Virus record (IMG/VR): IMGVR_UViG_2541047933_000011 | Origin: a virus | Taxonomy: Duplodnaviria; Heunggongvirae; Uroviricota; Caudoviricetes | DNA: 41,351 nt | Strand: one strand, 5' to 3' | In this document: piece after piece, positions 6,617 through 36,155 of the stretch | Numbering within the stretch: the stretch's first letter is position 1 | Layout: every line of letters begins with the position of its first letter | Position numbers and translations under genes: made by a program | Notes under the pieces: model-generated | What the model saw: only the letters and a program-made list of their open reading frames with translations | Databases searched by the model: none | What the model was told of the DNA's origin: nothing

Positions 6617-6633
6617 ATTACCTTTCGGGTAAT
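6617..6633. promoter_or_regulatory. operator-like palindrome ATTACC-tttcg-GGTAAT (perfect)
   Basis: exact 6-5-6 inverted repeat; 37 bp upstream of LexA box and 76 bp upstream of ATG 6709. Confidence 0.6.
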
Positions 6634-6669
6634 TTGCAAAACGTGCTGGATAGCAAACAAATTATTTGA

Positions 6670-6689
6670 TACTGTATAAATATACAGTT
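6670..6689. promoter_or_regulatory. LexA (SOS) box
   Basis: TACTGTATAAATATACAGTT: 18 of 20 matches to TACTGTATATATATACAGTA with CTGT-N8-ACAG intact; 20 bp upstream of ATG 6709. Confidence 0.7.
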
Positions 6690-6708
6690 ATTGCATGGAG
6701 AAGATAAG

Positions 6709-6966
6709 ATGCAGCAGTATCACTATCCACTGGAAGACGGATTTACCGAAAGGATTCACACGCCGGGAGGCGTCAGATCACTGGTGGAGGGATCGCACTT
6801 GATGAAATTACTCCGGGATCTCGATAAGGATGGATTTAATGTCGATGGCCCACTTGCCGAACTGACTGCACTGATTAACTACGTCACCAGCTCACAGATG
6901 TCTATGCAGGATCTGCAAACACATCTCGACTATTGTGCCGAACAATTACGAAAACAAACCACATAA
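6709..6966 (+). CDS. small protein homologous to the C-terminal domain of the Bro-N antirepressor (candidate SOS-inducible antirepressor)
   Basis: 85 aa; GGAG RBS 8 nt before ATG; about 36 percent identity over about 72 aa to the C-terminus of the 8112..8804 product (hand alignment). Confidence 0.6.
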   Translation: MQQYHYPLEDGFTERIHTPGGVRSLVEGSHLMKLLRDLDKDGFNVDGPLAELTALINYVTSSQMSMQDLQTHLDYCAEQLRKQTT

Positions 6967-6971
6967 AGAAA

Positions 6972-6989
6972 AGGCCGCTCTAGCGGCCT
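6972..6989. terminator. bidirectional stem-loop between convergent genes
   Basis: AGGCCGC-tcta-GCGGCCT hairpin overlapping stop of 6988..7716. Confidence 0.45.
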
Positions 6990-7716
6990 ATCGTTTCGCT
7001 TTGTGCTCGTCCCAGCACGTTTTGCACCATGCCATTAAGCCGTCCGCATTTTGATTATTAGGGTAAAAGCTAGTTCGTTTTCTGCGGACATTACAAATTG
7101 GGCACCACTTCATATGGCGTGTATTCTTTGGGCCATCGAGACACCTTGCACACCACTTAGTCAATCCATCTGGATTTTTTGACGATTTCCTGAATTTTTC
7201 ATATGGAAGGTTTATTCTGCATCGCAAGCACTGCTTGCTACCACTTGAAACTCTGTTAGCTGATTCTTCTTTTGGCGGCGATACAGAAGGTATTCTTGCT
7301 GGCTCTGATACTGCCTGAGGTGCTTTTTTAGATGACTGAGACGATATGTCATCACCAGGGAATCTTCCATGATATGCCGGACGCGTTGACACTCCGGGTG
7401 GAAGCTCAGCTGTAAACGGCTTTGGCTGAATCAGTTGCCTCTCTTTTGCTAACTCCTGCTGTTTATAATATGTCTGGATTACCGCGCTATCATAAGCAGG
7501 AGGTACGGAAATATTAGGCGCATTATCTCCCGTTTTTTGAAACTGAGTGGAGGTGTGTTCTATCACCTGTGTACGATTAATCGTTATCTCCCCATCTTCA
7601 GTCTTTATCGTTTTGTTATGATTAACGACCGTACGATCAGAGATCTTAGTCTTGTTCTGGTTGATAACGTAAATAATCACCGCAACCACACCAACAACTA
7701 CCCAGAAAACTTCCAT
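6988..7716 (-). CDS. membrane-anchored protein with C-terminal tandem zinc-ribbon (four CxxC pairs)
   Basis: 242 aa; strong GAGGAAAGG RBS; N-terminal TM helix; C-terminus CLRC...WCARC...WCPIC...WCKTC. Confidence 0.6.
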   Translation of the reverse strand: MEVFWVVVGVVAVIIYVINQNKTKISDRTVVNHNKTIKTEDGEITINRTQVIEHTSTQFQKTGDNAPNISVPPAYDSAVIQTYYKQQELAKERQLIQPKPFTAELPPGVSTRPAYHGRFPGDDISSQSSKKAPQAVSEPARIPSVSPPKEESANRVSSGSKQCLRCRINLPYEKFRKSSKNPDGLTKWCARCLDGPKNTRHMKWCPICNVRRKRTSFYPNNQNADGLMAWCKTCWDEHKAKR

Positions 7717-7735
7717 TGCCTTTCCTCACAATAAC

Positions 7736-7752
7736 ATTACCTTAAAGGTAAT
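7736..7752. promoter_or_regulatory. operator-like palindrome ATTACC-ttaaa-GGTAAT (perfect)
   Basis: exact inverted repeat 20 bp upstream of ATG 7716 (minus strand). Confidence 0.6.
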
Positions 7753-7800
7753 ATCTTGCTTTCAGGTGATCAAGCGTTAAACGCAATCAACCAAATACGG

Positions 7801-7830
7801 TTGATTTTAATATTTCTTCGCGTTTATCAT
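7801..7830 (+). promoter_or_regulatory. candidate sigma70 promoter (TTGATT-18-TATCAT) overlapped by operator
   Basis: -35 at 7801-7806, -10 at 7825-7830; operator 7829..7845 overlaps -10 and start region. Confidence 0.4.
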
Positions 7831-7845
7831 TACCTTTGCGGTAAA
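7829..7845. promoter_or_regulatory. operator-like palindrome ATTACC-tttgc-GGTAAa
   Basis: core TTACC-N5-GGTAA exact. Confidence 0.55.
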
Positions 7846-8111
7846 TTTACATCGCACTCCTCTTGTGCCATAGTAATCGGGCACTGGCAAAATCCAGTGC
7901 CGGGATTGGTCTCCCGGATTACTACAGAGGCACATATGCCGCATAAGCGGTTTTTTTATGTGTAAAGCGCACCTATTCTATGGTGGGCTGTGTGGGGGCA
8001 CCGAAAGGTGCGCCGGGTTCCTTTGTAGCCGGTAAGACCAACTCTGCACAGTTCACCACCATCTGATTGGTCTCAGCGGTGGTGATTAACCTAACTACAA
8101 AGGTGATCGCC
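7846..8111 (+). other. long structured non-coding leader upstream of Bro-N gene (possible attenuator or small RNA)
   Basis: about 265 nt without a credible ORF; hairpins at 7872-7897 and 7996-8011 (GAAA loop); CCGC-ataa-GCGG plus T7 at 7938-7957. Confidence 0.3.
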
Positions 8112-8804
8112 ATGAATACCAAACCTTCCATCTTTTCCTTTGAGTCATCCTGCCAGATCCGTATGTTCATGATTGACGGAGAACCTTGGTTTGTCACCAA
8201 AGATGTGTGCAATGCTTTGAATATTGATGTTACACAAGCGAGAAAACTTGATAAAAAAGGCTGGAACAAAAAGGGGCTGTATTCAATACAGACCCCTGGT
8301 GGAATACAAGAACTATCCATCGTTTCAGAATCAGGTCTCTACATCCTTATTCTGCGTTGCAAAGAGGCAATGACTGAGGGAACGAGAGCATTCAGATTTC
8401 TTGAATGGGTTACAGGTGAGGTTCTTCCTCAGATCCGCCGCACCGGAAGTTACATTAAAAACTCGCTCCCGCAGGAAGAACGCATAAAGATGGTTGCCGA
8501 CCAGGTAGCCAACGCCACAGCATCAGCAGTGATGCAGGCAATGAAGATAGAGAACAAAACCTACAGTGCCCCACTGAAGCCCGGCTACCGCAGCCTGATT
8601 CATTCTCCGTCTGGTGTTCTCGGCCTGACGGAGAACTCATTGCTTATGAATCTGCTAAACCAGTTACAGGAAGACGGGCACGACGTATCGGGCGCGGCGG
8701 CGGAGCTGACCACCATGTTCTGCTACATCGTCGGTGTGAGCAAATGCCTGCGTGATATCCAGACCCACGCGGAGTACATCAACGACAAGGCAGGGTTCTT
8801 CTGA
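8112..8804 (+). CDS. Bro-N domain antirepressor-like protein
   Basis: ATG 8112 with AGGTGA RBS; N-terminal FMIDGEPWFVTKDVCNALNI Bro-N motif; C-terminal domain paralogous to 6709..6966. Confidence 0.75.
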   Translation: MNTKPSIFSFESSCQIRMFMIDGEPWFVTKDVCNALNIDVTQARKLDKKGWNKKGLYSIQTPGGIQELSIVSESGLYILILRCKEAMTEGTRAFRFLEWVTGEVLPQIRRTGSYIKNSLPQEERIKMVADQVANATASAVMQAMKIENKTYSAPLKPGYRSLIHSPSGVLGLTENSLLMNLLNQLQEDGHDVSGAAAELTTMFCYIVGVSKCLRDIQTHAEYINDKAGFF

Positions 8805-8875
8805 CGGGCGGTGGCACAGGGACGTGCCTTTAAATAATTCTGTACAGATTGCAGACTGGGGGTGAATAGAGTACT

Positions 8876-8892
8876 ATTACCCCAAAGGTAAA
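8876..8892. promoter_or_regulatory. operator-like palindrome ATTACC-ccaaa-GGTAAa
   Basis: core exact; 26 bp upstream of ATG 8918. Confidence 0.55.
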
Positions 8893-8917
8893 CCGAGAGT
8901 TTACATGAGGGGGAAAC

Positions 8918-9106
8918 ATGGAAATCAACATCATTACATTGCTGAAGGCCATTATTGGCGGAGCGGGCTTAGGCTTTGCCCTACCAGGCGGATTATCTTT
9001 CCTGCTTCCTGCTTTTACTGTTACAGCTGGGATAGCCTATGCATTTGCTGTGGCTGGTGCTGTTGCACTCCCTGCTATCTATGCCGCAAAGAAGTTAGCC
9101 AACTAA
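8918..9106 (+). CDS. small hydrophobic Gly/Ala-zipper peptide (bacteriocin-like or membrane toxin-like)
   Basis: 62 aa; GAGGGGG RBS; N-terminal 15 aa ends in GG (MEINIITLLKAIIGG) followed by 47-aa hydrophobic glycine-rich segment. Confidence 0.5.
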   Translation: MEINIITLLKAIIGGAGLGFALPGGLSFLLPAFTVTAGIAYAFAVAGAVALPAIYAAKKLAN

Positions 9107-9107
9107 A

Positions 9108-9440
9108 ATGCCTGATTTATCTTGGCTTGCGCCCAGAGATGCACAGCAATTGACAAGGTTTTATTTCATACTGTGCATTGCTTATCTTGCTGTTCATCTG
9201 ATATGGGATGCCGTTTGCAAAGATACGCCTCCTTTTTCTTTGGATAAGTTGCAATACAAGATGAATGAGGTTTATTCATCATCTACTTTTGCAACCAGCG
9301 CATTCTTCATTGTTATTCTGTTCGATATGAAGAATCCACTGAGAACTTCAGATGCTTTCATATTCCCATTAATTATTGCTGCTCTAACTGGCTTTATGAT
9401 CTCATTATCAGCAATAGTGCCAAAGAAAGTAAATAACTGA
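9108..9440 (+). CDS. 3-TM membrane protein translationally coupled to the hydrophobic peptide (immunity or partner candidate)
   Basis: ATG 1 nt after upstream stop; three predicted TM helices; AT-rich. Confidence 0.5.
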   Translation: MPDLSWLAPRDAQQLTRFYFILCIAYLAVHLIWDAVCKDTPPFSLDKLQYKMNEVYSSSTFATSAFFIVILFDMKNPLRTSDAFIFPLIIAALTGFMISLSAIVPKKVNN

Positions 9441-9443
9441 ATA

Positions 9444-9466
9444 AGCCCGCGTTGCGGGCTTTTTTA
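9444..9466 (+). terminator. rho-independent terminator
   Basis: AGCCCGC-gttg-CGGGCT followed by TTTTT. Confidence 0.6.
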
Positions 9467-9537
9467 TGGACGAAACAAAAGTCAGTGCTACACTCATTGA
9501 CGCCACATCGAGGTGGCTTATAGATGGAAATGTCACA

Positions 9538-9699
9538 ATGAAAAAAGCATTTGCTGCACTGTTCGTTTTGTTGTCTCTGGTAGCTTCAACTCAGGCCTTT
9601 GCCGGTCGTTGTCAGCACGACAGCGATACTGCCGCTGACGGCTCCCGCTGCGGTGGGCGTTCTGCGGATTCCCGCCCGGGCGGCGGTGGCATTCGTTAA
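9538..9699 (+). CDS. small secreted Cys/Gly-containing peptide
   Basis: internal ATG gives signal peptide MKKAFAALFVLLSLVASTQAFA then about 31-aa mature peptide with 2 Cys; start and reality uncertain. Confidence 0.35.
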   Translation: MKKAFAALFVLLSLVASTQAFAGRCQHDSDTAADGSRCGGRSADSRPGGGGIR

Positions 9700-9704
9700 A
9701 AACA

Positions 9705-9727
9705 AGGCCGCGAAAGCGGCCTGTTTG
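9705..9727. terminator. stem-loop between convergent genes
   Basis: AGGCCGC-gaaa-GCGGCCT hairpin. Confidence 0.45.
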
Positions 9728-9728
9728 A

Positions 9729-10580: not shown

Positions 10581-10581
10581 C

Positions 10582-17748: not shown

Positions 17749-20219
17749 CAGAATCCCCCAACAGTAAGGCGAGGAATAACGGCAAGAACAGACAGCGGCA
17801 ACGGGTCAAGCTGACGGATTTTTACACGTCCGTTTTTGCCCCAGTTACTGTCCAGTTTCACTTCTACTTTTCCGGTAGCATCATCAACAGGATCATCGTA
17901 GAACTCGAATTCACGCTGTGGATATTCGTACCATTTACCGCCGGGCGTAGTCGCCCAGATGCCGCGACTGGCATTCACAACCAGAGTAACGGAGGGGATC
18001 ACCTGTTTTTTGTCCAGCAGCGTTTCCTGTCCGTTAATGTTGATATCCAGTGTTTCGAATTCAGCAGTTATTGGCAGGCCGATGTGCACTACAGCCCCCG
18101 GAGATTCCAGCGTGACGGCACCTCCGGAAACCACTTTCTGTGGTTCCACGTTCGCATCAGAGAGAATGTTTACGGTCTGGCCTTCAAGATGAGACAGGCC
18201 TCCAAATGTCCGGCGCGCCATCTGCCAGTTCGTGGTAGCCACATTCCTGAGGGATGGCGGGACGTTCCTGTTAGCACGAACCACTACAGCGGTATTGCTG
18301 GTTACAGAAATGATGTCGCAACGTAATTCTTTTGACACTTCATCGCCAGTATCAGGATCAGTTCCGGTATAAGGGAACTGTAGTTGAGCACCGATATCAC
18401 TACTGGTGAAGTACGCACCACCAGAAACACTGATTGTATATTCCGCGCGGTAATCCCATTCGCCAGAACCACCAGTGATGGTCATCGTTCTGTCAGACGT
18501 ATTTCTTCCATCATAGCTAAGGCCAGAATCAACAAAGAAAGCATCTTCATCGCTGGTAAATAAACGGCTGGACAGCCGCTCGATGTATCTCACTGTTTGC
18601 CCGTTAACGGTTCGGTTAACGACGAAATACACCGCATCTTCATTGCCTTCGCTGATACTGCATGTGCTTTCATATTTTCCGGTACTGGATTGTGGTGCCC
18701 ATGCAAAAACCTGCTGATCACGCAAATAGGTCATCACCAGTAATTTACCGTCATCACGAATGCAGAAGGCACTGGAGTAAGGGACAATCGAGAAGCACCA
18801 GTCAACAATGCTGTGCTTCTGAAAAAGATGATTGGCAAGGATGGTCAGGTCGTTCCCCTGATAGCCGTCAACATCGAATGAGTAGGCCAGATCACGGACA
18901 ACGCTGCCTTTCTCCTGGACGAACAGAGCAATATTCGCCACGGCAATTGGCGGGACGTTGCTTGAGCCATTTGATCCCTGAGAGCTGAATGCAAATGATG
19001 ATGGGGTTAACACTTTGTTCTGGTCGCCGGTGATGACGTACTCACCTCCGGAAGTCAGCGCCACCAGCGAACCGACATCAATCAGGTGGCGGATCTCATT
19101 AACCTGACGCCCGGCATAGGTGTAGATAATTCTGTCGTCATCCTGCGTAGGATTGCTTTTGCCAAAATCCTTATAATCCCCGGTACGGCTGGCCCAGATA
19201 GTCTGAGGGAACGCAGTCGATGCGGCGAAGTAAAGACGTTGTTGATAATAAACAACAGTGCCAGGATAACCATTAACACTGTTCCAGGCATATTTAGCCC
19301 ATTTATAGCTGGCATTATCCTCGCCAACGACCTGCGAAGGGATATAGGAAATCACCTCAGCAGTTGCAGTAGTGCCATTTGCAGCAGTGATACGGGCAAT
19401 GCCAAAACCACTGTGCAGATACTCCCACTCAATGCCAGTATCATCATCACCGGATCCGCCCCAGCCATCCCATGATGTGCCTTCTGTATGCGAAGGGCGC
19501 AAAGTACCTGTTTTGCCTGCTGTAACGGCGCGATAGTAGTTACTGTCTGCACGGCGAATATCGCCAATCGACGTACTCTTACTGGTTTCCCATACCGGCA
19601 CAGAATCCACTGCAGGCTGTTCCAGATAGAACAATTTGCCTACCTGCTCCGCGCCAAAAATAGAGGCGCTTGCCGTTAACGTAATTGTCCCGGTGCTGGC
19701 GCTGGCATAAACCGTCACTGACTCGTCAATATTGATATCTTCAAATGGCCCGTTCTTCGTTACCACATCAACCAGTTGCCAGTTGTCATGCGCATAGCGG
19801 CGCAACTCTTTCGGCGGGTATGCCGGATGAACCAGCGTAAGCACGTCTGCGCTTTGCGTGAATTTAATTCGGAACAGATCGGCTTCAGTATATGGCGTGG
19901 AAATTTCATAAATAACATTGCTGCTGTTCAGCACCAACGCACCATCTTTGATAACGCGCATGTACTGGTGTCCGAACTCCAGAGCATAAGTCTGAACCGT
20001 CGAGAACTGGAACGGGATCAGGCGGCATTTCCGATTTGGGTATTTGGCGGCACCGACAAAACGCGTACCAGGTCGATTCTCAACTCCGCCATACTGCCGC
20101 ACGATAAAGTTATCGCACTTGCGCAATGCCACCTGGTACTTCGCCATGTCAATACGACCGTACAACGACGGTCCAATCTCACCACCGGCAAAGCTGGGCT
20201 GGATCCAACTGATAGCCAT
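17748..20219 (-). CDS. tail hub / tail tubular protein B-like
   Basis: 823 aa; N-terminus MAISWIQPSFAGGEIGPSLYGR resembles T7 gp12 N-terminus (recalled). Confidence 0.65.
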   Translation of the reverse strand: MAISWIQPSFAGGEIGPSLYGRIDMAKYQVALRKCDNFIVRQYGGVENRPGTRFVGAAKYPNRKCRLIPFQFSTVQTYALEFGHQYMRVIKDGALVLNSSNVIYEISTPYTEADLFRIKFTQSADVLTLVHPAYPPKELRRYAHDNWQLVDVVTKNGPFEDINIDESVTVYASASTGTITLTASASIFGAEQVGKLFYLEQPAVDSVPVWETSKSTSIGDIRRADSNYYRAVTAGKTGTLRPSHTEGTSWDGWGGSGDDDTGIEWEYLHSGFGIARITAANGTTATAEVISYIPSQVVGEDNASYKWAKYAWNSVNGYPGTVVYYQQRLYFAASTAFPQTIWASRTGDYKDFGKSNPTQDDDRIIYTYAGRQVNEIRHLIDVGSLVALTSGGEYVITGDQNKVLTPSSFAFSSQGSNGSSNVPPIAVANIALFVQEKGSVVRDLAYSFDVDGYQGNDLTILANHLFQKHSIVDWCFSIVPYSSAFCIRDDGKLLVMTYLRDQQVFAWAPQSSTGKYESTCSISEGNEDAVYFVVNRTVNGQTVRYIERLSSRLFTSDEDAFFVDSGLSYDGRNTSDRTMTITGGSGEWDYRAEYTISVSGGAYFTSSDIGAQLQFPYTGTDPDTGDEVSKELRCDIISVTSNTAVVVRANRNVPPSLRNVATTNWQMARRTFGGLSHLEGQTVNILSDANVEPQKVVSGGAVTLESPGAVVHIGLPITAEFETLDININGQETLLDKKQVIPSVTLVVNASRGIWATTPGGKWYEYPQREFEFYDDPVDDATGKVEVKLDSNWGKNGRVKIRQLDPLPLSVLAVIPRLTVGGF

Positions 20220-24028: not shown

Positions 24029-25704
24029 TGTGATTGCCCACCCTGACCACTAACTGCATTCGCCATAGCTGACAAAACACTCGGATCCGAAGTTTTAGCT
24101 TCACTTAGCGTCTTGGCACCCTGTGCCGCCGCCATCCCCATCGCCATCATTTGTTGCTGCTGTTGTTGCTGTGCCCGTTGCTGGCGAGCCTGCTCAACCT
24201 GTTCCTGCGGAACAATGACGGTTGGAGACACTCCGGACATATCAGCGAATGCATCGATCGCCTGATCAACGTTGAGTTTGTCGAGAGCTTCTGGTTTCGC
24301 TTGCGCAAGTTGACCAATGAAGTTAACCGTGGACGCCAGACTGGACAGGCCGATAGACTTCTGCGCCTGAGCCATGACGGAAATGTATTCGACCTTCAGG
24401 GGCATGCCTTCCATCGCGTCAGGCGGTGGCGGCAGCATGTTTTTACGCACCATCATCGAGAAAGAGCGATCAATGAGAGGATTAAGACATTCGTCGTTCA
24501 GGCGCTCCAGAACCGGCCCCAACATCAGAAGTTTTTCTTCTTTCATTTCGATCACCGCTTCCACAGGCATCGAGCGGGTATTGATGTTCTGCAACATCAT
24601 GAACAGATCGACAAAGTAGGCGCTGTTAATGATTTGACGAGTGTCCTGAATGTCTGCCACCAAATCTGCTGTACTGGGGTTAACCAGATAAGCAGGCCTG
24701 AAACCATCCTGACCAGTAATCTGATCGATATACGTGATGTCGCCAGGAAGAAGGGAGGCGCGCTGATTCTTGAGGGAAGTCGGAGCAACCATCGGCGGAT
24801 TGGTGGCTTTATCAATCAACTGCGACTTGCGCTTCTGGAGAAGCTGCAATGCCTTAACAGGTCCAAGCGCCAGCATACCCGGGCATGATGATCCATAAAC
24901 ATCTTCGCCGTTAACTTCCCAGCGCGGAGCCATAATTGGAAACTCATCGAATCCGGACTCACGCAACAACTTGTCGTTATCGCCACCAACCTCGTAATAA
25001 ACCGATTTGAATGGCTTGTTCTTGCTATCCAGCTTCGATGTATCGCGGTCAATGTTCGGGTAAACCGAATGCATCACTTCAATCCACTTCTCGTAGGTGC
25101 CGCTTTCCCACATGCTTTTTACGGATTCGCTGACGTTATTTAGCCCGAACTCCTGAACAAGCTGACGAACAGTCATAGAGAACTTGCGAAAACAGGTGTC
25201 CACACTGCCACGAGGTGAGTTAGCCAGGTAGTAACTGCCTATCGGGAATGGCATTGTGCGAATGATGTCCTCGTCATCCTCCAGCACCGCCATTGCACCA
25301 GTGCTGTATGTGCCGAGGCTTCCGTATAACTGCGGAAGAGACTGGTAGAGATTCGACTTATTGAACATATCGTTCATGCGGTTCTGCACCGCCTCGAGCC
25401 ACAACTTAACAGGACCATAATCCATCATTTCAGGATCTGGCGTAGCCAGGCGAAACCACGGACGCGCAGGGCTTGTGATGCCTGACATCATGCCGCTGGC
25501 GAGAGTGCGCGCCGCCATAGTCCCGGTCGAATCAATAATGCGTGTATTGCGTCGATCGTTACGGTTGACTTCAGAAGTCAGAAAGCGGGAACCACGCGGG
25601 TTGATGTAATCACTCAACTCGCGCCAGTGCGGCTCGAACGACTGACGCTCGCTTTCAAGTTGTGCGAACTGTTTGTTCAATCGCTCTTTAGTTGTTTCCG
25701 CCAT
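24025..25704 (-). CDS. portal (head-to-tail connector), T7 gp8-like
   Basis: 559 aa; GGAG RBS; Gln/Met/Ala-rich C-terminus (QQQQQQQMMAMGMAAAQGA) resembling T7 gp8 C-terminus (recalled). Confidence 0.8.
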   Translation of the reverse strand: MAETTKERLNKQFAQLESERQSFEPHWRELSDYINPRGSRFLTSEVNRNDRRNTRIIDSTGTMAARTLASGMMSGITSPARPWFRLATPDPEMMDYGPVKLWLEAVQNRMNDMFNKSNLYQSLPQLYGSLGTYSTGAMAVLEDDEDIIRTMPFPIGSYYLANSPRGSVDTCFRKFSMTVRQLVQEFGLNNVSESVKSMWESGTYEKWIEVMHSVYPNIDRDTSKLDSKNKPFKSVYYEVGGDNDKLLRESGFDEFPIMAPRWEVNGEDVYGSSCPGMLALGPVKALQLLQKRKSQLIDKATNPPMVAPTSLKNQRASLLPGDITYIDQITGQDGFRPAYLVNPSTADLVADIQDTRQIINSAYFVDLFMMLQNINTRSMPVEAVIEMKEEKLLMLGPVLERLNDECLNPLIDRSFSMMVRKNMLPPPPDAMEGMPLKVEYISVMAQAQKSIGLSSLASTVNFIGQLAQAKPEALDKLNVDQAIDAFADMSGVSPTVIVPQEQVEQARQQRAQQQQQQQMMAMGMAAAQGAKTLSEAKTSDPSVLSAMANAVSGQGGQSQ

Positions 25705-25925: not shown

Positions 25926-26014
25926 ATCAATGACTCCGTACGCAATTAAATTATTACCAATTTAACCACATATGATTTATTTATCGTAGAAGGTTGACAT
26001 TTAACGCGTTAATT

Positions 26015-26031
26015 ATTACCTTTCAGGTAAC
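26015..26031. promoter_or_regulatory. operator-like palindrome ATTACC-tttca-GGTAAc
   Basis: core exact; 90 bp upstream of ATG 25925. Confidence 0.55.
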
Positions 26032-26352: not shown

Positions 26353-26429
26353 GTGGCATTAGCTCAGTTGGACAGAGCAACCGCCTTCTAAGCGGTTGGT
26401 CGCAGGTTCGAATCCTGCATGCCACGCCA
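26353..26429 (+). tRNA. tRNA-Arg (anticodon UCU), phage-encoded
   Basis: 77 nt; acceptor stem GTGGCAT/ATGCCAC; D-arm GCTCAGTTGGACAGAGC; anticodon stem ACCGC/GCGGT with loop CTTCTAA; T-arm GCAGGTTCGAATCCTGC; 3' GCCA. Confidence 0.85.
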
Positions 26430-26472
26430 GAATCACGCCTAAGGACCGTGATGCCAGAAGTTCCAGGTGCTT

Positions 26473-26516
26473 GGCGGTGATAGTTTCCCTTGAAGGACTA
26501 TCACCGCCCTTTTTAC
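26473..26516 (+). terminator. rho-independent terminator after tRNA
   Basis: 12-bp stem GGCGGTGATAGT/ACTATCACCGCC followed by CTTTTT. Confidence 0.65.
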
Positions 26517-26627
26517 AGCAGGACGCCATTGCGATGACTTCATGCTGTAAACCCGTACAGCCACGGAAGGCATAACTCATTGCTTCCAGTTCGCCCGGTT
26601 CGCCGGGCATTTTTTTAAGGTGAGATT

Positions 26628-27002
26628 ATGAACGACCAGCAAATCGAAAAAGAAATCGTTGAGAAAGGCAAAACCGCTCCGCGTGTAACACCCGAGAAAA
26701 TTGAAGGCCTCATTTGCAGTGAGCATTTTTTCACTGCTGCGCAGGGTGACCACCAGGCTAAAGAAGATGACCTTATTTATAATCCGGAGCCTTATGTCGA
26801 AGCCACCCCTGATGCTCTGCACCTTCTCACTTTCTGCGTATTGGTACTGAAGAATGGCTTCACCGTTACCGGAGAGAGTGCCTGTGCAAGCCCGGAAAAC
26901 TTTGATGCAGAAATTGGTCGGAAGATTGCCCGGCAGAATGCTGTAAACAAAATCTGGATGCTCGAAGGTTACTTGCTGAAGCAGAAGTTAAGCGAGCAAT
27001 AA
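26628..27002 (+). CDS. Gp49-like (N4 gp49 / Sf6 gp66 family) protein
   Basis: 124 aa; AAGGTGA RBS; motif LTFCVLVLKNGFTVTGESAC recalled as typical of this family. Confidence 0.55.
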   Translation: MNDQQIEKEIVEKGKTAPRVTPEKIEGLICSEHFFTAAQGDHQAKEDDLIYNPEPYVEATPDALHLLTFCVLVLKNGFTVTGESACASPENFDAEIGRKIARQNAVNKIWMLEGYLLKQKLSEQ

Positions 27003-27019: not shown

Positions 27020-27022
27020 AAC

Positions 27023-27050: not shown

Positions 27051-27092
27051 TCCTCACCAGAGGATATCAGCAGTATTATCCCCACCAGCGGA

Positions 27093-28568: not shown

Positions 28569-29161
28569 TGATTGCCATCCTGACGTTCTTTCAGTCTCTT
28601 CCTGGCTGCCGCTATGCGATCAGCAATTGTCACATTCACATTAACATCCAGGCGTTCTTTGAATGCGTTGACGTCGACGTGCTTACCAATCAGTTCGAGG
28701 TTCTTCACCTTGTCAGGCCATTTAATTTTTTTGAGGATTGTCTCTATCGAATCCTCGTTCATGTTCATGATGGTCGATGACAGATCAAAGCCACTAAGCG
28801 TAGTGCGCCAGATTTTCGGCCACTCGCGGATTGGCTTAAGGCTCCCATCGTCGTTGAGGATGTCGATCACGTCCATCTGGTCGATCTCCACCAGGCGCAT
28901 GAGAACGTAATCAGCACTGACGCGCATTCGTTTGTTGCGCTCTTCCATCAGCTCGGCAATCCGTTTTTGAATGCGTTCATCGCGCATCATGAGACTGGCT
29001 TTAACTGCCGCTGTATTTGGGGAGAATCCTGCGTTAATCGCAGCCTGAGTCTGGTTTTCAGGCGTTTGGATGTATGACTGGCAATAAGCCTCCTGCATTG
29101 CTGTTAGTGGCTTAAATTGCGTTGATTTGCGTTTATAGGTTTTAGGTTCAGCAGGCATCAT
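28565..29161 (-). CDS. terminase small subunit
   Basis: about 199 aa from ATG 29161; HTH-like NQTQAAINAGFS; directly upstream of terL. Confidence 0.65.
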   Translation of the reverse strand: MMPAEPKTYKRKSTQFKPLTAMQEAYCQSYIQTPENQTQAAINAGFSPNTAAVKASLMMRDERIQKRIAELMEERNKRMRVSADYVLMRLVEIDQMDVIDILNDDGSLKPIREWPKIWRTTLSGFDLSSTIMNMNEDSIETILKKIKWPDKVKNLELIGKHVDVNAFKERLDVNVNVTIADRIAAARKRLKERQDGNQ

Positions 29162-29177
29162 AACCACCGTGGTAATA

Positions 29178-29194
29178 GTTACCGTTGTGGTAAT
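29178..29194. promoter_or_regulatory. operator-like palindrome gTTACC-gttgt-GGTAAt inside an 11-bp direct repeat (GTGGTAATAGT x2)
   Basis: core exact; 17 bp upstream of terS ATG. Confidence 0.55.
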
Positions 29195-29235
29195 AGTACC
29201 ATGCAAAATAAAGCCGCCATAGTTGGCGGCAGTAT

Positions 29236-29448
29236 TCAAAGTCCATCAAATTCATCGTAAAAACTCTCGTCAAGATACCCTTCCCATTTACCGCGAATGA
29301 AAATTACATCCTCGCCGCAAGGGTGCTGACTGTCGATAACTATATCCCTCCTGGCGCAACCATACTTATGCATGAGAAATTTAACCTCTTTCGGAAAATT
29401 TGCTGAGTTATCTCTCATATCTTCAAGGTCGTAGCGTATTTTTGGCAT
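29236..29448 (-). CDS. small protein upstream of terS
   Basis: 70 aa from ATG 29448 with AAGGTG RBS. Confidence 0.5.
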   Translation of the reverse strand: MPKIRYDLEDMRDNSANFPKEVKFLMHKYGCARRDIVIDSQHPCGEDVIFIRGKWEGYLDESFYDEFDGL

Positions 29449-29470
29449 AACACCTTCGTGACATGTCACA
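29447..29470. repeat. direct repeat copy 2: ATAACACC-ttc-GTGACATGTCACA
   Basis: matches 26999..27019 apart from a 3-nt insertion; overlaps start of 29236..29448 and stop of 29466..29804. Confidence 0.7.
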
Positions 29471-29804
29471 CTATTAATTTCGTTTCATGCCAGCCTTTAG
29501 TCACCCAGCATTGCGAGTCACCATTACACGGGCATGAATTAACGGGAACTCTCTCGCCGCACTTACCGCAAAGTTTTCTGCTGATCGATTTTATACGCCC
29601 GCGCACACGTGCATCATCCTGGCGGATCAGCAGCGCGATGTACTCGGCCATTTCATAGGGATCGTGACCAGGGCGCCGGGCGGCGCAGTTCCGCGCCAGC
29701 ATTTCCTGCTCCTGCTTATCCAGCACCAGTTCAATTTTGCGCTCACCGGCGGCGGACTGCCGAGCGCGCTGCGCGGCTTTGCGCTCTGCTGCTGATTTAG
29801 CCAT
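29466..29804 (-). CDS. protein with C-terminal Cys cluster (zinc-binding; possible late regulator by position)
   Basis: 112 aa from ATG 29804 with AAGGTG RBS; C-terminus CGKCGERVPVNSCPCNGDSQC. Confidence 0.5.
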   Translation of the reverse strand: MAKSAAERKAAQRARQSAAGERKIELVLDKQEQEMLARNCAARRPGHDPYEMAEYIALLIRQDDARVRGRIKSISRKLCGKCGERVPVNSCPCNGDSQCWVTKGWHETKLIV

Positions 29805-31104: not shown

Positions 31105-31107
31105 GTG

Positions 31108-31395
31108 TTAGTCCTCATCCACTTCAACGCCATCTTTCAGCGTGATGCCGTGCCAATCATCAGCCCAACTGGTTAGCCCTGGCGCATCAATGCTAGGCAT
31201 ATAAACGCTTGCAGTGTGGTAGCCCTTATCGTTATCAATGCTGGCAACGTGCTCGCCGTTGTATGCGCTCAGCGTGTCCAGGACGCTATAAAACTTTCCT
31301 CCGGCTGCCCTGAAATCCTTTACAGCCTTCACAAGGCGATTCCACGCTTTTTCCTGTTCTGGCGTCAGGTCGATTAATTCCTGCAAAGTTGCCAT
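31108..31395 (-). CDS. hypothetical phage protein
   Basis: 95 aa from ATG 31395 with AGGAG RBS. Confidence 0.5.
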   Translation of the reverse strand: MATLQELIDLTPEQEKAWNRLVKAVKDFRAAGGKFYSVLDTLSAYNGEHVASIDNDKGYHTASVYMPSIDAPGLTSWADDWHGITLKDGVEVDED

Positions 31396-31396
31396 A

Positions 31397-32053: not shown

Positions 32054-32568
32054 TGGTTGCCTCCTTTGCGAAGCTGGGCAGCAAAGTCAACTAACCACTC
32101 AGTCATTTCAACCTTCCCTACCAGGTCTGAACCAGGGTGCATACAGCAATCACTCTGCGCCGCTTTGAAATCCTTATACTCATATTCTTGGGCCACCAGA
32201 TTTTTTGCAGCTTCTATAGCAGCATCCACCCCCTGCGCCCGCACTTCAGACAGGAAAGCATCGGTGGCTGGCATATTTCCTGTTGCCTTCATTGCCTCCA
32301 AAATAACCAGAACGCCATCTCGCCCAATCTCCTCGCAGATAACCTCGGTGCTGTCGCCAACAACATCGCAAAATGCCTGAACTGCTTTACGAGCCAGCGC
32401 ATTCTCCGCAGCCAGCGCATTAGCACGCACCAGTTGCACTTCCAGTTGCGTTGCCAAATAGCTGATCAGCTTTGCCACACTGCGCATATCAACGGCACCA
32501 CATTCTGCTTTCAGTTCCGAAGCCATCTCATGCCCGGCGGCAACTAACCCTTTGATATTACTTTCCAT
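32050..32568 (-). CDS. hypothetical early protein
   Basis: 172 aa; GAGGG RBS. Confidence 0.55.
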   Translation of the reverse strand: MESNIKGLVAAGHEMASELKAECGAVDMRSVAKLISYLATQLEVQLVRANALAAENALARKAVQAFCDVVGDSTEVICEEIGRDGVLVILEAMKATGNMPATDAFLSEVRAQGVDAAIEAAKNLVAQEYEYKDFKAAQSDCCMHPGSDLVGKVEMTEWLVDFAAQLRKGGNQ

Positions 32569-32629
32569 CTTTACCCTCGCTTATCCACATAACTTATTGA
32601 TTACATTGATAACTAAAAAGATCGTCGAT

Positions 32630-32977
32630 TCAGAACTCTTCGATGTTCCAGCCACCACCTGCTTTCTTTGGCTTAACCGTTACCCCGATGATTCGGAACG
32701 GATACTGATCTGCGGCGACTTTGGTTTTCACTCTGGCGTCATCGGTCCAGAATCCCCCTTTCACTTCGTGCAGTTCCATCTCGCCGGTGGCGAGCATCAC
32801 AGCAAAATCTGGCGTATAGAACGTGTTGTCAGCTAACCGCAGCTTGATACCCTCAAATCGATACCAGACGATTTCTCCTGCACGTTTACGCAGCTCAAGG
32901 TGCTGGCAATACGCAGATTCTGTTTTGTTCATCTGGCCTGTTTTGAGTCGACCAAGAGCCTGCATCTGTTTTCTCAT
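32630..32977 (-). CDS. PD-(D/E)xK nuclease-like small protein (DUF1064-like)
   Basis: 115 aa; motif YTPDF...ELHEVKG; RBS overlapped by operator 32980..32996. Confidence 0.5.
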   Translation of the reverse strand: MRKQMQALGRLKTGQMNKTESAYCQHLELRKRAGEIVWYRFEGIKLRLADNTFYTPDFAVMLATGEMELHEVKGGFWTDDARVKTKVAADQYPFRIIGVTVKPKKAGGGWNIEEF

Positions 32978-32979
32978 GA

Positions 32980-32996
32980 TTTACCCCTTAGGTAAT
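32980..32996. promoter_or_regulatory. operator-like palindrome tTTACC-cctta-GGTAAT
   Basis: core exact; overlaps RBS of 32630..32977. Confidence 0.55.
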
Positions 32997-33041
32997 TAAA
33001 AACCACATAAGACACGAAATCAATAGATTTTAGAATATTTT

Positions 33042-33058
33042 ATTACCTCTAAGGTAAT
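33042..33058. promoter_or_regulatory. operator-like palindrome ATTACC-tctaa-GGTAAT (perfect)
   Basis: exact; 65 bp upstream of ATG 32977, inside the early operon. Confidence 0.6.
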
Positions 33059-33094
33059 TATCGAGACGTAAAAAAATGCGCTATCGCGCTGGTA

Positions 33095-33877
33095 TTACTT
33101 GATAAATCCTGACGCCTTTCCCCGCCTGTATTCCTCCATCAGCCACTGCGCCGGTGTTATTCCCCCAAGGGTGGCGGCGTTAGGCATGCACCCGAAACTT
33201 CGCCCTGGTGGATGGTAAACGTCTCTCCCTGTGTCCGGAGGCGTACTCATGGGTTCTGGCTTTGCCTGTATGCTGATCACCGGATCGGGTATCTGCTGTC
33301 CGGAAGCCACCTTTTTCGCCCAATCATCGAGCAGCCTGCGCGCGTGTTTCTCAACCTCAATCTCGCTAAGCTGGCGCTGATACATTGCACGGCGGGTATC
33401 ACATACGACCCAGTACATAACCGGATGTCGCCACGGGAATCTTTCGGGACCACCAGGATATAAACTTTTTTCCTTGCTGTACCGGTGAAACTCCGCCATC
33501 ACATCGTCAATGGTGACGCCAAGAACCATCTTGCTGTCTTTACACCACTTGATGAATTGCCCTGGCGACGGCCAGAACGGAGACTCACTGGCGCGGGCGT
33601 GGCGCATACCAGCGTTAACCTGTTCCATTGTTGTGATCCCATTCTCCAGAAACGCAAGCATCCATTGTTTTCGAAATTCGTTTAGCTTTCCTTGCTCGCT
33701 GATAGCAGCGATGCTGCCTGGAAATGCAGCCTGTAACTGGACAAACATTTCGTTGAAAATTCTTGCAACCTGCTCCTTCTTTGCCCTTTCATCGTCAGCA
33801 GAAGCAACCGCCGTCGAGTGGTCATGCCCACCACGAAAGCGATCGTACTCATTAAGAAGTTCTGGAGTTGATTTCAT
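33095..33877 (-). CDS. replication protein P-like (helicase loader)
   Basis: about 260 aa from ATG 33877; ITTMEQVNAGMRHARASESPFWPSPGQFIKWCKD closely matches lambda P (recalled). Confidence 0.8.
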   Translation of the reverse strand: MKSTPELLNEYDRFRGGHDHSTAVASADDERAKKEQVARIFNEMFVQLQAAFPGSIAAISEQGKLNEFRKQWMLAFLENGITTMEQVNAGMRHARASESPFWPSPGQFIKWCKDSKMVLGVTIDDVMAEFHRYSKEKSLYPGGPERFPWRHPVMYWVVCDTRRAMYQRQLSEIEVEKHARRLLDDWAKKVASGQQIPDPVISIQAKPEPMSTPPDTGRDVYHPPGRSFGCMPNAATLGGITPAQWLMEEYRRGKASGFIK

Positions 33878-34685
33878 CCCACACCTCATCTATCCAGTCA
33901 GTGTTATGCCAGTCAAGGCTCTTTCTGACTTCACCTGATTTCTGTCTACAGAACTGGATGCGCCTTGCCAGCTTCTGCTCCCACTGTGCCTGATGGTATG
34001 CCTTACCCTCAGCCATCCAGTAAATTCTGAACTCTGCAAGTTCCTGTGCCGTTGGCAGACTGTCCAGGTAGATTCCCTGCAATGAGCTTTTCCGAAGAAA
34101 GTCATCTGATGGCTGCCATTGTTCATGCATGACAAATTTGCCTAATTGCCCTGGCCCACCAGGAGGAACAAAGTTATTCATCACGGCGTTGTTTGCGCCG
34201 GGGTCATGAGGCACAGAATCCCCGGTTTTTGTCCTGCTCTCCCTCTCTTGGTTAAATGACTGGTTATATGACTGGTTCTGGATCCCGTTTTTGGGATCAT
34301 TCAACATCCCGTTTTTGGGATCATTCAACATCCCGTTTTTGGGTATATTCCCGTTTTCGGTAACATTACCGTTTTCGGGTTCATTGCCCCCCTCCCGGTT
34401 GCCTTTAATGTTCCCGTTTTTGGTTATATTAAGAGAGAAAACCCGCACTCTTTTTGTCGCTCCCTTTCTCTCTCCGGTATCTGAAATAAGCCCCATTTTC
34501 ATGAGCGATATAAGCCCGGCCTGCACGGTTTTTTTATTCAGGCAAGTGTCTTTAACGAGGCGTTCTATGCTGGGGTAGCAGAGGTTATATTCATCGGCTC
34601 TGTCAGCCATCGAGAGCAGTATGAGCTTTAATGATGAGCTACCTGGATCTGTCTCCCAGGCCCAATCTGTTGCATGTCTGCTCAT
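33852..34685 (-). CDS. replication initiator O-like (N-terminal HTH, iteron-encoding linker)
   Basis: 277 aa; GGAG RBS; N-terminal HTH; NGN/KNG repeats encoded by the iteron array. Confidence 0.7.
   Translation of the reverse strand: MSRHATDWAWETDPGSSSLKLILLSMADRADEYNLCYPSIERLVKDTCLNKKTVQAGLISLMKMGLISDTGERKGATKRVRVFSLNITKNGNIKGNREGGNEPENGNVTENGNIPKNGMLNDPKNGMLNDPKNGIQNQSYNQSFNQERESRTKTGDSVPHDPGANNAVMNNFVPPGGPGQLGKFVMHEQWQPSDDFLRKSSLQGIYLDSLPTAQELAEFRIYWMAEGKAYHQAQWEQKLARRIQFCRQKSGEVRKSLDWHNTDWIDEVWDEINSRTS
34282..34425. repeat. iteron array / replication origin inside O-like gene
   Basis: six copies of palindromic ATCCCGTTTT(T)GGGAT-like unit at 18-24 bp spacing, including an exact 24-bp tandem duplication (34282-34305 and 34306-34329). 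Confidence 0.7.
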
Positions 34686-34700
34686 GATTAATCTCCGCTA

Positions 34701-34901
34701 TCAGCTTGAGTGTTGTGGGGAGGAATTAATCATGATCTGCTTAATCTCTGCCCTGATGCGACGGTTTGATTCCATGGTGCACTCAACACAGTGTCCGTTG
34801 TAAACCCAGCGTTCACTGTCATGTCCATGCTTACATGGTTTTCCGGTGTAGTAGCGTTTAAGTCCGCGCTTTGCGGCATCAATACGTGTAATGATTTCCA
34901 T
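34701..34901 (-). CDS. small zinc-finger protein (between cro-like and O genes)
   Basis: about 66 aa from ATG 34901; KPCKHGH...GHCVEC; start ambiguous (34937 and 34964 are alternatives). Confidence 0.4.
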   Translation of the reverse strand: MEIITRIDAAKRGLKRYYTGKPCKHGHDSERWVYNGHCVECTMESNRRIRAEIKQIMINSSPQHSS

Positions 34902-34980
34902 GGTAAGCCCTGTTATTAGTATTGGGATTACGGTCATTTTGTGCTGACACAAAAAAAAGATCAACCAGATTTGGTTTTTT

Positions 34981-34997
34981 ATTACCTTTGAGGTACG
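34981..34997. promoter_or_regulatory. degenerate operator-like palindrome ATTACC-tttga-GGTACg
   Basis: one core mismatch. Confidence 0.4.
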
Positions 34998-35051
34998 AAT
35001 AGATATGAAAAGACCGCCGGGTGGCGGTCTACAGAGGGTTGTAGCTGGATA

Positions 35052-35282
35052 TCATGAGTAGAAGAAGTATGCCAGTTCTGCTTTTGAGCGCAGCCATTGT
35101 CTTGTTTTACAGGCTTTAAAAAGCCCATTCATCAATACCTTACCTGGCATTTTGCGCTTACCTGTTAAGTGAGTCTGGATATAGTGACTCGTCGTTCCGG
35201 CTTCCTGTGCGAAGGCTTCACGCTCATCCGGAGTAAGTGCAAGCCAGTGCTTTTTGAAATCGAAATGTCCGTTATCGCTCAT
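35052..35282 (-). CDS. Cro-like HTH regulator
   Basis: 76 aa; HTH segment EAFAQEAGTTSHYIQTHLTG; divergent from repressor gene across operator cluster. Confidence 0.6.
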   Translation of the reverse strand: MSDNGHFDFKKHWLALTPDEREAFAQEAGTTSHYIQTHLTGKRKMPGKVLMNGLFKACKTRQWLRSKAELAYFFYS

Positions 35283-35317
35283 AGCTATTGCCTGATATTT
35301 ATTTCAGATAATAAATA

Positions 35318-35334
35318 TTCACCCATAAGGTAAC
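35318..35334. promoter_or_regulatory. degenerate operator-like site tTCACC-cataa-GGTAAc
   Basis: one core mismatch; immunity intergenic region. Confidence 0.4.
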
Positions 35335-35348
35335 AAAAATCAAGGATA

Positions 35349-35365
35349 GTTACCTACGGGGTGCA
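35349..35365. promoter_or_regulatory. degenerate operator-like site gTTACC-tacgg-GGTGCa
   Basis: two core mismatches; abuts next site. Confidence 0.35.
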
Positions 35366-35382
35366 TTTACCTGTTGGGTAAT
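35366..35382. promoter_or_regulatory. operator-like palindrome tTTACC-tgttg-GGTAAT
   Basis: core exact; 55 bp upstream of repressor ATG. Confidence 0.55.
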
Positions 35383-35436
35383 ATTGCTTTAAATTGAATC
35401 ATCTACTGATTCATATATGAGGCGATTTTCCAGAAA

Positions 35437-36021
35437 ATGAAAAGTATCCAGGACGTCCGCAGGCAAAATCTCAACGACTTGATCGACCGTGAATTCAATG
35501 GTGTTCAGACGCGGATGGCAGAAAAACTTGGAACTCAGGCAAATCTGGTAAACCGCTGGGCTCTTGGCAAGAAGGTTATCGGCGACCAGGTTGCACGAAA
35601 AATTGAAGCTGCCGCCAATAAACCCCGTAACTGGCTTGATATTGATCGTTCGCTTTCTCAGGAGGGTTTTCAGCCTGTCGGCCCGAGCGATATAGGTCAG
35701 CTGGCGGCTCACAACCTGGAACGCTGGATGAGCGAAAGCCGCGACCTTTCAACACAGGGAAAACTTCACCGCGCATCCGGCGTCGCCCAGGTGACAATCA
35801 GCCGCCTGTTAAACAATGAGGTCAGCGTTTCCATTTCCACTCTGGAGAATGTTGCATCCGCATTCGGGCGTCACGGATATGAACTACTGATTCACCCGCA
35901 CGACCCTGCGACTATCAACTATGACCGCTCACGCTACGCATTGTTACCCGAAACCGAGAAAGCAAAGATCGAAAGTTACATTGAATTTGTCATCAACCAG
36001 AACGAAAAAAGCAAACAATAA
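35437..36021 (+). CDS. prophage repressor candidate with two XRE-type HTH domains and no peptidase domain
   Basis: 194 aa; HTH-1 QTRMAEKLGTQANLVNRW, HTH-2 SGVAQVTISRLLNNEVS; no S24 Ala-Gly/Ser-Lys region; no strong SD. Confidence 0.6.
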   Translation: MKSIQDVRRQNLNDLIDREFNGVQTRMAEKLGTQANLVNRWALGKKVIGDQVARKIEAAANKPRNWLDIDRSLSQEGFQPVGPSDIGQLAAHNLERWMSESRDLSTQGKLHRASGVAQVTISRLLNNEVSVSISTLENVASAFGRHGYELLIHPHDPATINYDRSRYALLPETEKAKIESYIEFVINQNEKSKQ

Positions 36022-36041
36022 AACTATAGTTTTCAGTAAGT

Positions 36042-36066
36042 AAGCCGCCTCATGCGGCTTTTTTAT
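36042..36066 (+). terminator. rho-independent terminator after repressor gene
   Basis: AAGCCGC-ctcat-GCGGCTT followed by TTTTATT. Confidence 0.6.
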
Positions 36067-36076
36067 TGCCAGATAG

Positions 36077-36093
36077 ATTACCTTACGGGTAAT
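36077..36093. promoter_or_regulatory. operator-like palindrome ATTACC-ttacg-GGTAAT (perfect)
   Basis: exact; 19 bp upstream of TTGACA -35. Confidence 0.6.
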
Positions 36094-36111
36094 TTTTTTA
36101 ACTCATATCTA

Positions 36112-36140
36112 TTGACACCAAACCAAATAAGCATAATTAT
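36112..36140 (+). promoter_or_regulatory. candidate early promoter (PL analogue): TTGACA -35 with AT-rich -10
   Basis: TTGACA at 36112-36117; -10 candidates at 36133-36140; flanked by operators 36077 and 36139. Confidence 0.5.
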
Positions 36141-36155
36141 TACCTCAACGGTAAC
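36139..36155. promoter_or_regulatory. operator-like palindrome ATTACC-tcaac-GGTAAc
   Basis: core exact; overlaps -10 and start region; 19 bp upstream of ATG 36174. Confidence 0.55.

Follow-up and report, generated by a model that had tools for sequence, protein, structure and literature searches.

A 17-bp palindrome dispersed over an ε15/phiV10-type prophage of Escherichia coli is very probably the operator of its immunity repressor

The 41,351-nucleotide stretch of viral DNA analyzed here (IMG/VR record IMGVR_UViG_2541047933_000011; in the following "the window") is recognizable from its sequence as an integrated Escherichia coli prophage of the ε15/phiV10 group (Uetakevirus). It is bounded by yfgI and a tyrosine integrase, and its early region is mostly 96–97% identical to phiV10-type phages of this genus, the type member of which is Salmonella phage ε15. 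Scattered between its genes are copies of a 17-bp palindrome, A-TTACC-N5-GGTAA-T, which an earlier note on this DNA had taken to be the immunity operator. Our analysis supports this reading: the palindrome is very probably the operator of the prophage immunity repressor Rep (35437-36021), and its copies are called operators below. This assignment draws on the homology of Rep, over its full length, to the repressor of phage SPC32H, on the annotation of the same 17-mer as a "repressor" site in ε15, and on the conservation of the sites, down to the base pair, at corresponding positions in related genomes.

Both strands of the window together contain 11 exact copies of the core TTACC-N5-GGTAA, with starts at 6618, 7737, 7830, 8877, 26016, 29179, 32981, 33043, 35367, 36078, and 36140 (the coordinates of the 17-mers begin one base earlier). 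Dinucleotide-preserving shuffles lead to an expectation of 0.03 copies, and none of 100 shuffled sequences reached 11. The count and the positions given in the earlier note are thus borne out, and its chance expectation of about 0.04 hardly changes. Among all palindromes of 5+5 bases with spacers of 0–11, TTACC-N5-GGTAA ranks first in the window, no other having more than four copies. Its half-sites match in a symmetrized matrix, and the sites are perfect hyphenated palindromes. In a gene model built from the open reading frame (ORF) list and the annotation of near-identical prophages, non-coding DNA amounts to 7.4% of the window. All 11 exact sites fall within this fraction (P ~4e-13), which agrees with the intergenic placement claimed before, once an over-long annotation of terS is corrected (see below). 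If up to two mismatches to the full 17-mer are allowed, the sites 29160 and 34981 are added together with two intragenic matches that resemble chance hits.

Exact copies in unrelated enterobacterial DNA, which the earlier note had named as evidence against its reading, are rare: 100 kb of E. coli chromosome contained one, corresponding to 0.01 per kb as compared to ~0.29 per kb in Rep-bearing phage DNA (a ~30-fold lower density). This lone host copy (TTTACCAATTTGGTAAA, L018:9184-9200) is intergenic between frsA and crl. It probably reflects chance or a hairpin, and a resident Rep could in principle bind there. Sodalis phage phiSG1, whose portal protein is 58% identical, has zero exact sites and no match to Rep; because it is a mosaic element, this outgroup counts as weak support. 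Alternatively, the repeats might work as nucleic-acid structures (RNA hairpins, terminators) or as cis-acting sites for packaging, recombination, or a host transcription factor. Each copy can indeed form a 7-bp hairpin, and the copy in the frsA-crl gap would fit such a role. However, these hairpins fold weakly (-4.5 kcal/mol), have no T tract, and show a fixed stem sequence instead of covarying pairs, by which RNA hairpins and terminators are ruled out. Furthermore, this palindrome is the only enriched one, its copies are placed upstream of genes and overlap promoters, and a host factor is disfavored both by the low density on the host chromosome and by the lack of the motif in the Rep-less relative. 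Explanations of this kind are therefore highly improbable.

The earlier note also listed three degenerate copies, at 34981, 35318, and 35349. With a position weight matrix trained on relatives only, the first two score 15.6 and 14.6 bits, respectively. As shuffled sequence reaches up to 17.7 bits, support for them rests on their conservation at orthologous positions. In contrast, the copy at 35349 is only a half-site in the window. A further degenerate copy at 29160-29176, absent from that list, abuts operator 29178.

The GenBank record of ε15 (AY150271.2) contains seven features labeled "protein_bind, repressor, lysogeny", each of which reads ATTACC-N5-GGTAAT. They are located at 12-27 (terS), 2931-2947 (gp3/portal operon), 19895-19911 (the gap between gp19, the Ant homolog, and the tailspike gene), 32479-32632 (three sites downstream of the repressor gene, at PL), and 35906-35922 (an internal early promoter before the RuvC-like gene). 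The exact sites of ε15 between rep and gp39 (PR region) are unmarked in this record. In a full-text literature search, the operator sequence and Uetakevirus operators gave nothing relevant.

The exact core occurs 11 times in ε15, 10 times in SPC32H, eight times in phiV10, and nine times each in Enterobacter phage Tyrion and Klebsiella phage BUCT711. It is the top over-represented palindrome in all six annotated genomes, i.e., the window and these five phages, which cover E. coli, Salmonella, Enterobacter, and Klebsiella. The earlier note had proposed the same scan for related prophages. There, too, the palindrome recurs at conserved positions: Rep-encoding prophages of Superficieibacter, Erwinia, Klebsiella, Citrobacter, and Scandinavium have the same sites with the same spacings, so that the 12 Rep-bearing genomes and loci comprise 101 exact sites. 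Conserved distances are 19 bp to terS, 89–90 bp to the gp3-like gene, ~75 bp to ant, ~105 bp to the tailspike gene, and 53–54 bp to rep. A 62-bp pair follows rep, and another 62-bp pair precedes the DUF1064/RuvC gene; in the latter pair, 2 bp separate the proximal site from the ATG. When the upstream regions are aligned, the half-sites form invariant islands amid diverged intergenic sequence. Operator 26015, for instance, forms a conserved island in diverged DNA and keeps its distance in all six genomes, and the orthologs of operator 7829 (phiV10 20496, Tyrion 21392) lie 265–270 bp upstream of the Bro-N start. Over the 12 genomes and loci, 23 of 36 pairs of neighboring sites are spaced by 61–63 bp; spacings of 17 bp (six pairs), 76 bp (four), 80 bp (one), and 93 bp (one) also occur.

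Rep is the protein that we infer to bind these sites. The closest solved structure is that of SPC32H Rep (5D50_A), with residues 2-197 of which residues 1-190 align (phmmer E 3.5e-42); 5D4Z, a C-terminal fragment, matches as well (E 3.6e-20). The homology spans the N-terminal DNA-binding region, the middle region, and the C-terminal region for tetramerization and Ant binding. In the Pfam search, Rep showed two helix-turn-helix (HTH) regions with matches to HTH_3, HTH_26, and YdaS-type helix-turn-helix families only, and no Peptidase_S24 domain. According to one report, Rep-SPC32H stays uncleaved on induction; it occupies palindromic sites as a tetramer, in which N-terminal domains pair across dimers, and is released by tetrameric Ant (PMC9638917). 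Another report describes an N-terminal DNA-binding domain, a middle dimerization domain, and a p53-like tetramerization domain of a type linked to DNA looping, and states that the mode of repression "has not been extensively characterized" (PMC9986798). Moreover, Rep of the window is 99.5% identical to ORF21 of ZX5, overexpression of which abolished free phage, blocked lytic growth, and lowered the mRNAs of holin and endolysin by over 99.9%.

The Reps of the relatives are 43–78% identical overall. Compared to Rep of the window, identity is 53–90% over the N-terminal 72 columns and 37–70% over the remainder. The presumed recognition helix, NLVNRW, and the operator are both invariant in phages of at least four host genera. 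Genome contigs were scanned for relatives with peptide patterns that included NLVNRW, which is why all full-length relatives found (L007-L012) keep both the helix and the motif. Distant matches restricted to the N-terminal part (Paraburkholderia, Hydrogenovibrio, Thiomicrospira) differ in this helix and have neither the motif nor a clear alternative palindrome. The small antirepressor Ant is nearly identical between the window and SPC32H, although the part of Rep that it reportedly binds, the C-terminal one, is divergent. Its promoter region carries the only good LexA box (6672); a second candidate near 8876 was rejected due to wrong spacing.

Three adjacent sites between rep and the divergent cro-like gene had been claimed, and they are present as an imperfect (35318), a half (35349), and an exact site (35366). 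The promoter of the cro-like gene (- strand) consists of TTGTTA at 35336-35331 and TATTAT at 35313-35308. The left half of operator 35366, TTTACC, could act as the -35 element of a candidate rep promoter together with TTAAAT at 35389-35394. As the cro-like gene heads the rightward operon next to these sites and its product belongs to a phage "transcriptional repressor" family, the palindromes might mainly be targets of this protein, which would damp early and accessory promoters during lytic growth, with Rep using only some of them. The Cro and CI proteins of lambdoid phages share operators and thus provide a precedent. However, the cro-like protein has no Pfam or PDB match, the ε15 record credits the sites to the repressor, and the sites at late genes and ant suit a lysogenic repressor and not a lytic-phase protein. 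A predominant role of the cro-like protein is thus improbable; shared use of the sites is possible, and exclusive use is unlikely.

The operators stand in a close relationship to promoters, which was checked base by base. At five promoters (leftward early, DUF1064, IsrK/C4/Bro-N, small-ORF, and terS) the -10 hexamer ends in the first AT of an operator. A second operator is present upstream of the -35 hexamer at three of these, at a distance of 62 bp in two cases and of 93 bp in the case of Bro-N. The leftward early promoter (36112..36140, + strand) comprises TTGACA at 36112, a 17-bp spacer, and AATTAT at 36135-36140. It matches the consensus at 10 of 12 positions, and the final two bases of its -10 hexamer open the proximal operator 36139. 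The claimed bracketing of a TTGACA promoter by two sites just past the repressor gene is confirmed with 36077 and 36139. The DUF1064 promoter (- strand; -35 TTGATT 33023-33018, -10 TTTAAT 33000-32995) has operators 33042 and 32980 in the same arrangement. The latter abuts the start codon of 32630..32977, consistent with the reported overlap with the ribosome-binding site of this gene. A decayed version of the cassette exists at the gp40-like promoter (- strand; TTGATC 34964-34959, CAAAAT 34941-34936), where operator 34981 has a proximal partner in degenerate form. All three cassettes are preceded by a terminator. Likewise confirmed are the copies described in front of terS, the portal operon, and Bro-N, as well as those of the LexA-boxed gene, the 242-aa zinc-ribbon gene, and the small-ORF pair.

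The terS promoter features a conserved extended -10 element, TGnTACTAT, which in the window reads TGgTACTAT (29201-29193, - strand) and ends in the first AT of operator 29178; a terminator (29230-29213) is located just upstream. Operators 29178 and 29160 abut, as do the sites between rep and the cro-like gene (17–18 bp). We rejected the TTG start of terS in the PGAP and phiV10 annotations (window 29162-29239, - strand; phiV10 record 41-118), an extension that swallows the terminator hairpin and two operators. Since the hairpin within this extension is a GC-rich terminator and MPAEPK forms the N terminus of the ε15 protein, the start is placed at the ATG at 29161/29158, which renders site 29178 intergenic.

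Sites 29160, 26015, and 6617 do not overlap a recognizable core promoter and could act in another way. A second conserved element, CATATGTGGTT followed 5–6 bp further on by GGTAATA, was observed downstream of the gp3/portal and tailspike operators, and its core TATGTGGTT is also found within the spacer of the DUF1064 promoter. No convincing -35 and -10 hexamers could be assigned in the CATATGTGGTT...GGTAATA block before the portal operon and the tailspike gene. This element, which includes a Rep half-site, may be a middle or late promoter signal.

The promoter geometry also bears on the idea that the palindrome is the site of a middle or late activator of the phage, such as the gp49-like regulator (29466-29804) or the PerC-like protein (38964-39263), and marks co-activated promoters. 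Genes of regulator families (phrog_536, phrog_868) are present, single sites lie ~70 bp upstream of the candidate promoters of the portal operon and the tailspike gene, and the distal sites center near -61, a position open to activators. In contrast, the coverage of the -10 hexamer and the start point at five promoters is a repressing position, some operator-bearing promoters are so consensus-like (TTGACA-17-AATTAT) that they need no activator, and the sites flank rep in an OL/OR arrangement. We thus regard an activator site as very unlikely.

If the palindromes are operators of Rep, this protein would directly silence almost every transcription unit of the lysogen, and not just the two early operons. 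Both early operons have operators, and so have the sub-operons for replication and accessory functions, terS-terL, the portal/virion operon, ant and the tailspike gene, the Bro-N unit, and two accessory units. As most transcription units carry one, lysogeny would be kept by direct genome-wide repression. The visible exception is the lysis genes, before which no operator was found in the window; ε15 has one at 24703. Each palindrome would be bound by a pair of N-terminal HTH domains, and initiation would be blocked where the -10 hexamer and the start point are covered, as predicted for the leftward early, DUF1064, IsrK/C4/Bro-N, small-ORF, and terS promoters. One tetramer could plausibly hold two operators, because the Rep-SPC32H tetramer carries two DNA-binding pairs. 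Two sites could then be occupied together, either side by side (17–18 bp) or about six helical turns apart, the latter forming a small loop that would enclose the upstream half of the promoter. Induction would be brought about by the antirepressor and not by cleavage of Rep: upon DNA damage, LexA would be cleaved and lost from the ant promoter, and the newly made Ant would then strip Rep from all operators at once.

Several observations weigh against this interpretation. Firstly, the constant 62-bp spacing could partly stem from promoter geometry, i.e., a fixed 17-bp spacer, and from common descent of the cassettes instead of looping. Secondly, the cro-like protein may share the sites. Thirdly, simple occlusion fails to explain sites 26015 and 6617, because these single sites of the portal operon and the tailspike gene are ~70 bp upstream of the best promoter candidates. 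Finally, operator and recognition helix are invariant together in every relative found, which leaves no covariation. A more far-reaching proposal, which we put forward tentatively and consider doubtful, is that the pairs fixed at 61–63 bp are clamped by one Rep tetramer into a micro-loop of about six turns enclosing the -35/UP region, and that the matching of at least 10 dispersed operators to one protein froze specificity genus-wide. As a consequence, Rep would confer mutual immunity on phages of E. coli, Salmonella, Klebsiella, Enterobacter, Citrobacter, and others, and diversification would have moved to the C-terminal half of Rep and to the LexA-Ant and IsrK/C4-Bro-N circuits.

Table 1. 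Predicted operators and associated features of the window (operators are putative binding sites of Rep; "exact" refers to the core TTACC-N5-GGTAA).
Feature	Coordinates	Strand	Remarks
Operator ATTACCTTTCGGGTAAT	6617..6633		Exact; between divergent tailspike (-) and ant (+) genes; ortholog is annotated ε15 repressor site 19895-19911
Operator	7736..7752		Exact; 19 bp upstream of 242-aa zinc-ribbon gene (-); also distal partner of 7829 (93 bp)
Promoter-like site TTGATT, 18 bp, TATCAT	7801..7830	+	-10 at 7825-7830; last two bases are first two of operator 7829
Proximal operator, IsrK/C4/Bro-N unit promoter	7829..7845		Exact
Promoter-like site TTGCAG, 17 bp, TACTAT	8849..8877	+	Overlaps operator 8876
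Operator before 62-aa/110-aa small-ORF pair	8876..8892		Exact
Operator	26015..26031		Exact; 89 bp upstream of gp3-like gene (-), head of portal/virion operon
Degenerate operator ATTACCACGGTGGTTAT (- strand)	29160..29176		Over terS ribosome-binding region
Operator at terS promoter	29178..29194		Exact; ortholog is annotated ε15 site 12-27
Proximal operator, DUF1064 cassette	32980..32996		Exact; 2 bp from ATG of 32630..32977
Distal operator, DUF1064 cassette	33042..33058		Exact; 62 bp from 32980; ortholog is annotated ε15 site 35906-35922
Imperfect operator CGTACCTCAAAGGTAAT (- strand)	34981..34997		Past terminator, upstream of gp40-like promoter
Decayed proximal partner of 34981	34937-34921	-	Belongs to gp40-like promoter cassette
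Imperfect operator	35318..35334		Overlaps -35 and spacer of cro-like gene promoter
Half-site remnant GTTACC...GGTGCA	35349..35365		Abuts 35366; exact operator at this place in ε15, SPC32H, BUCT711
Operator	35366..35382		Exact; 54 bp upstream of rep
Distal operator, leftward early promoter	36077..36093		Exact; 18 bp upstream of -35
Proximal operator, leftward early promoter	36139..36155		Exact; overlaps -10 and start site; 62 bp from 36077
rep, immunity repressor, 194 aa	35437..36021	+	SPC32H Rep homolog; putative site-binding protein
ant, small antirepressor, 85 aa	6709..6966	+	Versus 5D50_E (SPC32H Ant) E 1.3e-47; near-identical over 84 aa
LexA box CTGTATAAATATACAG (perfect), ant promoter region	6672..6687	+	Longer form TACTGTATAAATATACAGTT at 6670-6689
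cro-like gene, first of rightward early operon	35052..35282	-	phrog_35 "transcriptional repressor", E 5.6e-13
CATATGTGGTT/TATGTGGTT element copies	25964-25972, 6578-6586, 33001-33009	-	Weaker copy at 3148-3156
IsrK-like small RNA	7881-7957	+	Rfam, above gathering score, 74.7 bits
C4 antisense RNA (RF01695)	7976-8063	+	Rfam, above gathering score, 78.6 bits
Bro-N gene	8094-8804	+	Bro-N domain by Pfam
Tailspike gene	3394-6513	-	Intact; 1039-aa endosialidase-type (K1 capsule) protein
tRNA gene	26353-26426	+	Corresponding gene is tRNA-Arg in PGAP annotation of near-identical CUVET20-PYO2 prophage

The 250-nt leader between the operator-covered promoter and the Bro-N gene is occupied by an IsrK-type Hfq-binding small RNA and a C4 RNA. 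This layout resembles both immI of phage P1 (operator, c4 RNA, antirepressor) and isrK-anrP of Gifsy-1; the biology of IsrK is treated elsewhere (PMC4825925). On the + strand at 26353-27002, a tRNA gene and a 124-aa ORF with terminators on either side are located opposite to their neighbors between terL and the portal operon. This segment is an insertion that splits the late genes, which explains the need for a separate promoter and operator at the portal operon. The tailspike gene, intact in the window, is annotated as frameshifted in strain CUVET20-PYO2. The terminator scan furthermore revealed two tandem 24-bp direct repeats (TGGGATCATTCAACATCCCGTTTT...) at 34292-34335 (+) within the DnaT-like gene 33852-34685, which could be iterons of a replication origin.

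The system is already known in kind, as the motif is annotated in ε15 and the Rep-Ant pair has been crystallized, and no new mechanism is involved. Our additions are modest and consist of the cassette architecture, the quantized spacing, the terS promoter with the corrected start, the genus-wide invariance of the operator, and the IsrK/C4 leader before Bro-N. Only the conserved 62-bp pairing and the genus-wide operator invariance might repay experiments. If correct, the proposed function of Rep would explain the near-complete gene silence in a common E. coli K1-type prophage by a single antirepressor-sensitive repressor acting directly on early, late, and accessory promoters, in contrast to a lambda-style cascade. 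For annotation, besides fixing the terS start, TTACC-N5-GGTAA offers a simple marker of transcription units in ε15-like prophages.

Like the CI/Cro region of lambdoid phages, the window has divergent rep and cro-like genes with three sites in between and a second cluster at the leftward early promoter past rep. Unlike lambdoid CI, however, its Rep has no S24 autocleavage domain and is countered by an antirepressor, and operators are not confined to OL and OR: additional ones belong to late and accessory genes, and paired sites bracket promoters at 62 bp. With eight of the 11 exact sites outside the regions flanking rep, the dispersal beyond a classical lambdoid layout noted previously is evident. 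The earlier note had further compared this dispersal with the C1 operators of P1 and with mycobacteriophage stoperators. P1 is a plasmid prophage whose C1-family repressor recognizes an asymmetric operator scattered over the genome, and its immI operon encodes the c4 RNA and an antirepressor. Similar to P1/P7 C1, one repressor would serve many dispersed operators of unrelated operons in the window, and as in immI an operator-controlled promoter is followed by a C4-family antisense RNA and a gene of antirepressor type (Bro-N). In contrast to P1, Rep has an XRE-type HTH and is not a C1-family protein, the operators are palindromic, and the prophage is an integrated podovirus. P1 is thus apt as an analogy, reinforced by the C4 RNA before Bro-N, whereas membership in either of the two families does not hold.

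The repressors of cluster A mycobacteriophages (L5/L1) are described as binding multiple asymmetric operators (PMC1934351). As with these stoperators, the sites in the window extend far beyond the immunity region and include virion genes. However, they are symmetric and unoriented instead of asymmetric and oriented with transcription, they number 11–15 as compared to two to three dozen, and most seem to overlap a -10 hexamer and start point, as five do at predicted promoters, instead of lying inside transcribed regions where elongation would be halted. Because they are palindromic and mostly overlap promoters, they are better described as operators than as stoperators.

The closest counterparts are ε15 and SPC32H, which share with the window the Rep family over its full length, a small LexA-controlled Ant, and the same 17-bp palindrome at terS, the portal operon, ant/tailspike, PL, PR, and the internal early promoter, with 62-bp and 17-bp spacings. 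Differences are found in the sequence of Rep, which is only 43% identical to that of ε15/SPC32H (53% in the N-terminal domain), and in the number of sites, as PL has two in the window and three in ε15 and only a decayed half-site is left of the middle PR site in the window. Three operator-controlled accessory units of the window are lacking from ε15 and SPC32H: the IsrK/C4/Bro-N unit, which phiV10 and Tyrion also have, the small-ORF pair, and the 242-aa zinc-ribbon gene. By its repressor and antirepressor, its LexA box, and the positions of its operators, the system of the window belongs to the ε15/SPC32H Rep-Ant type.

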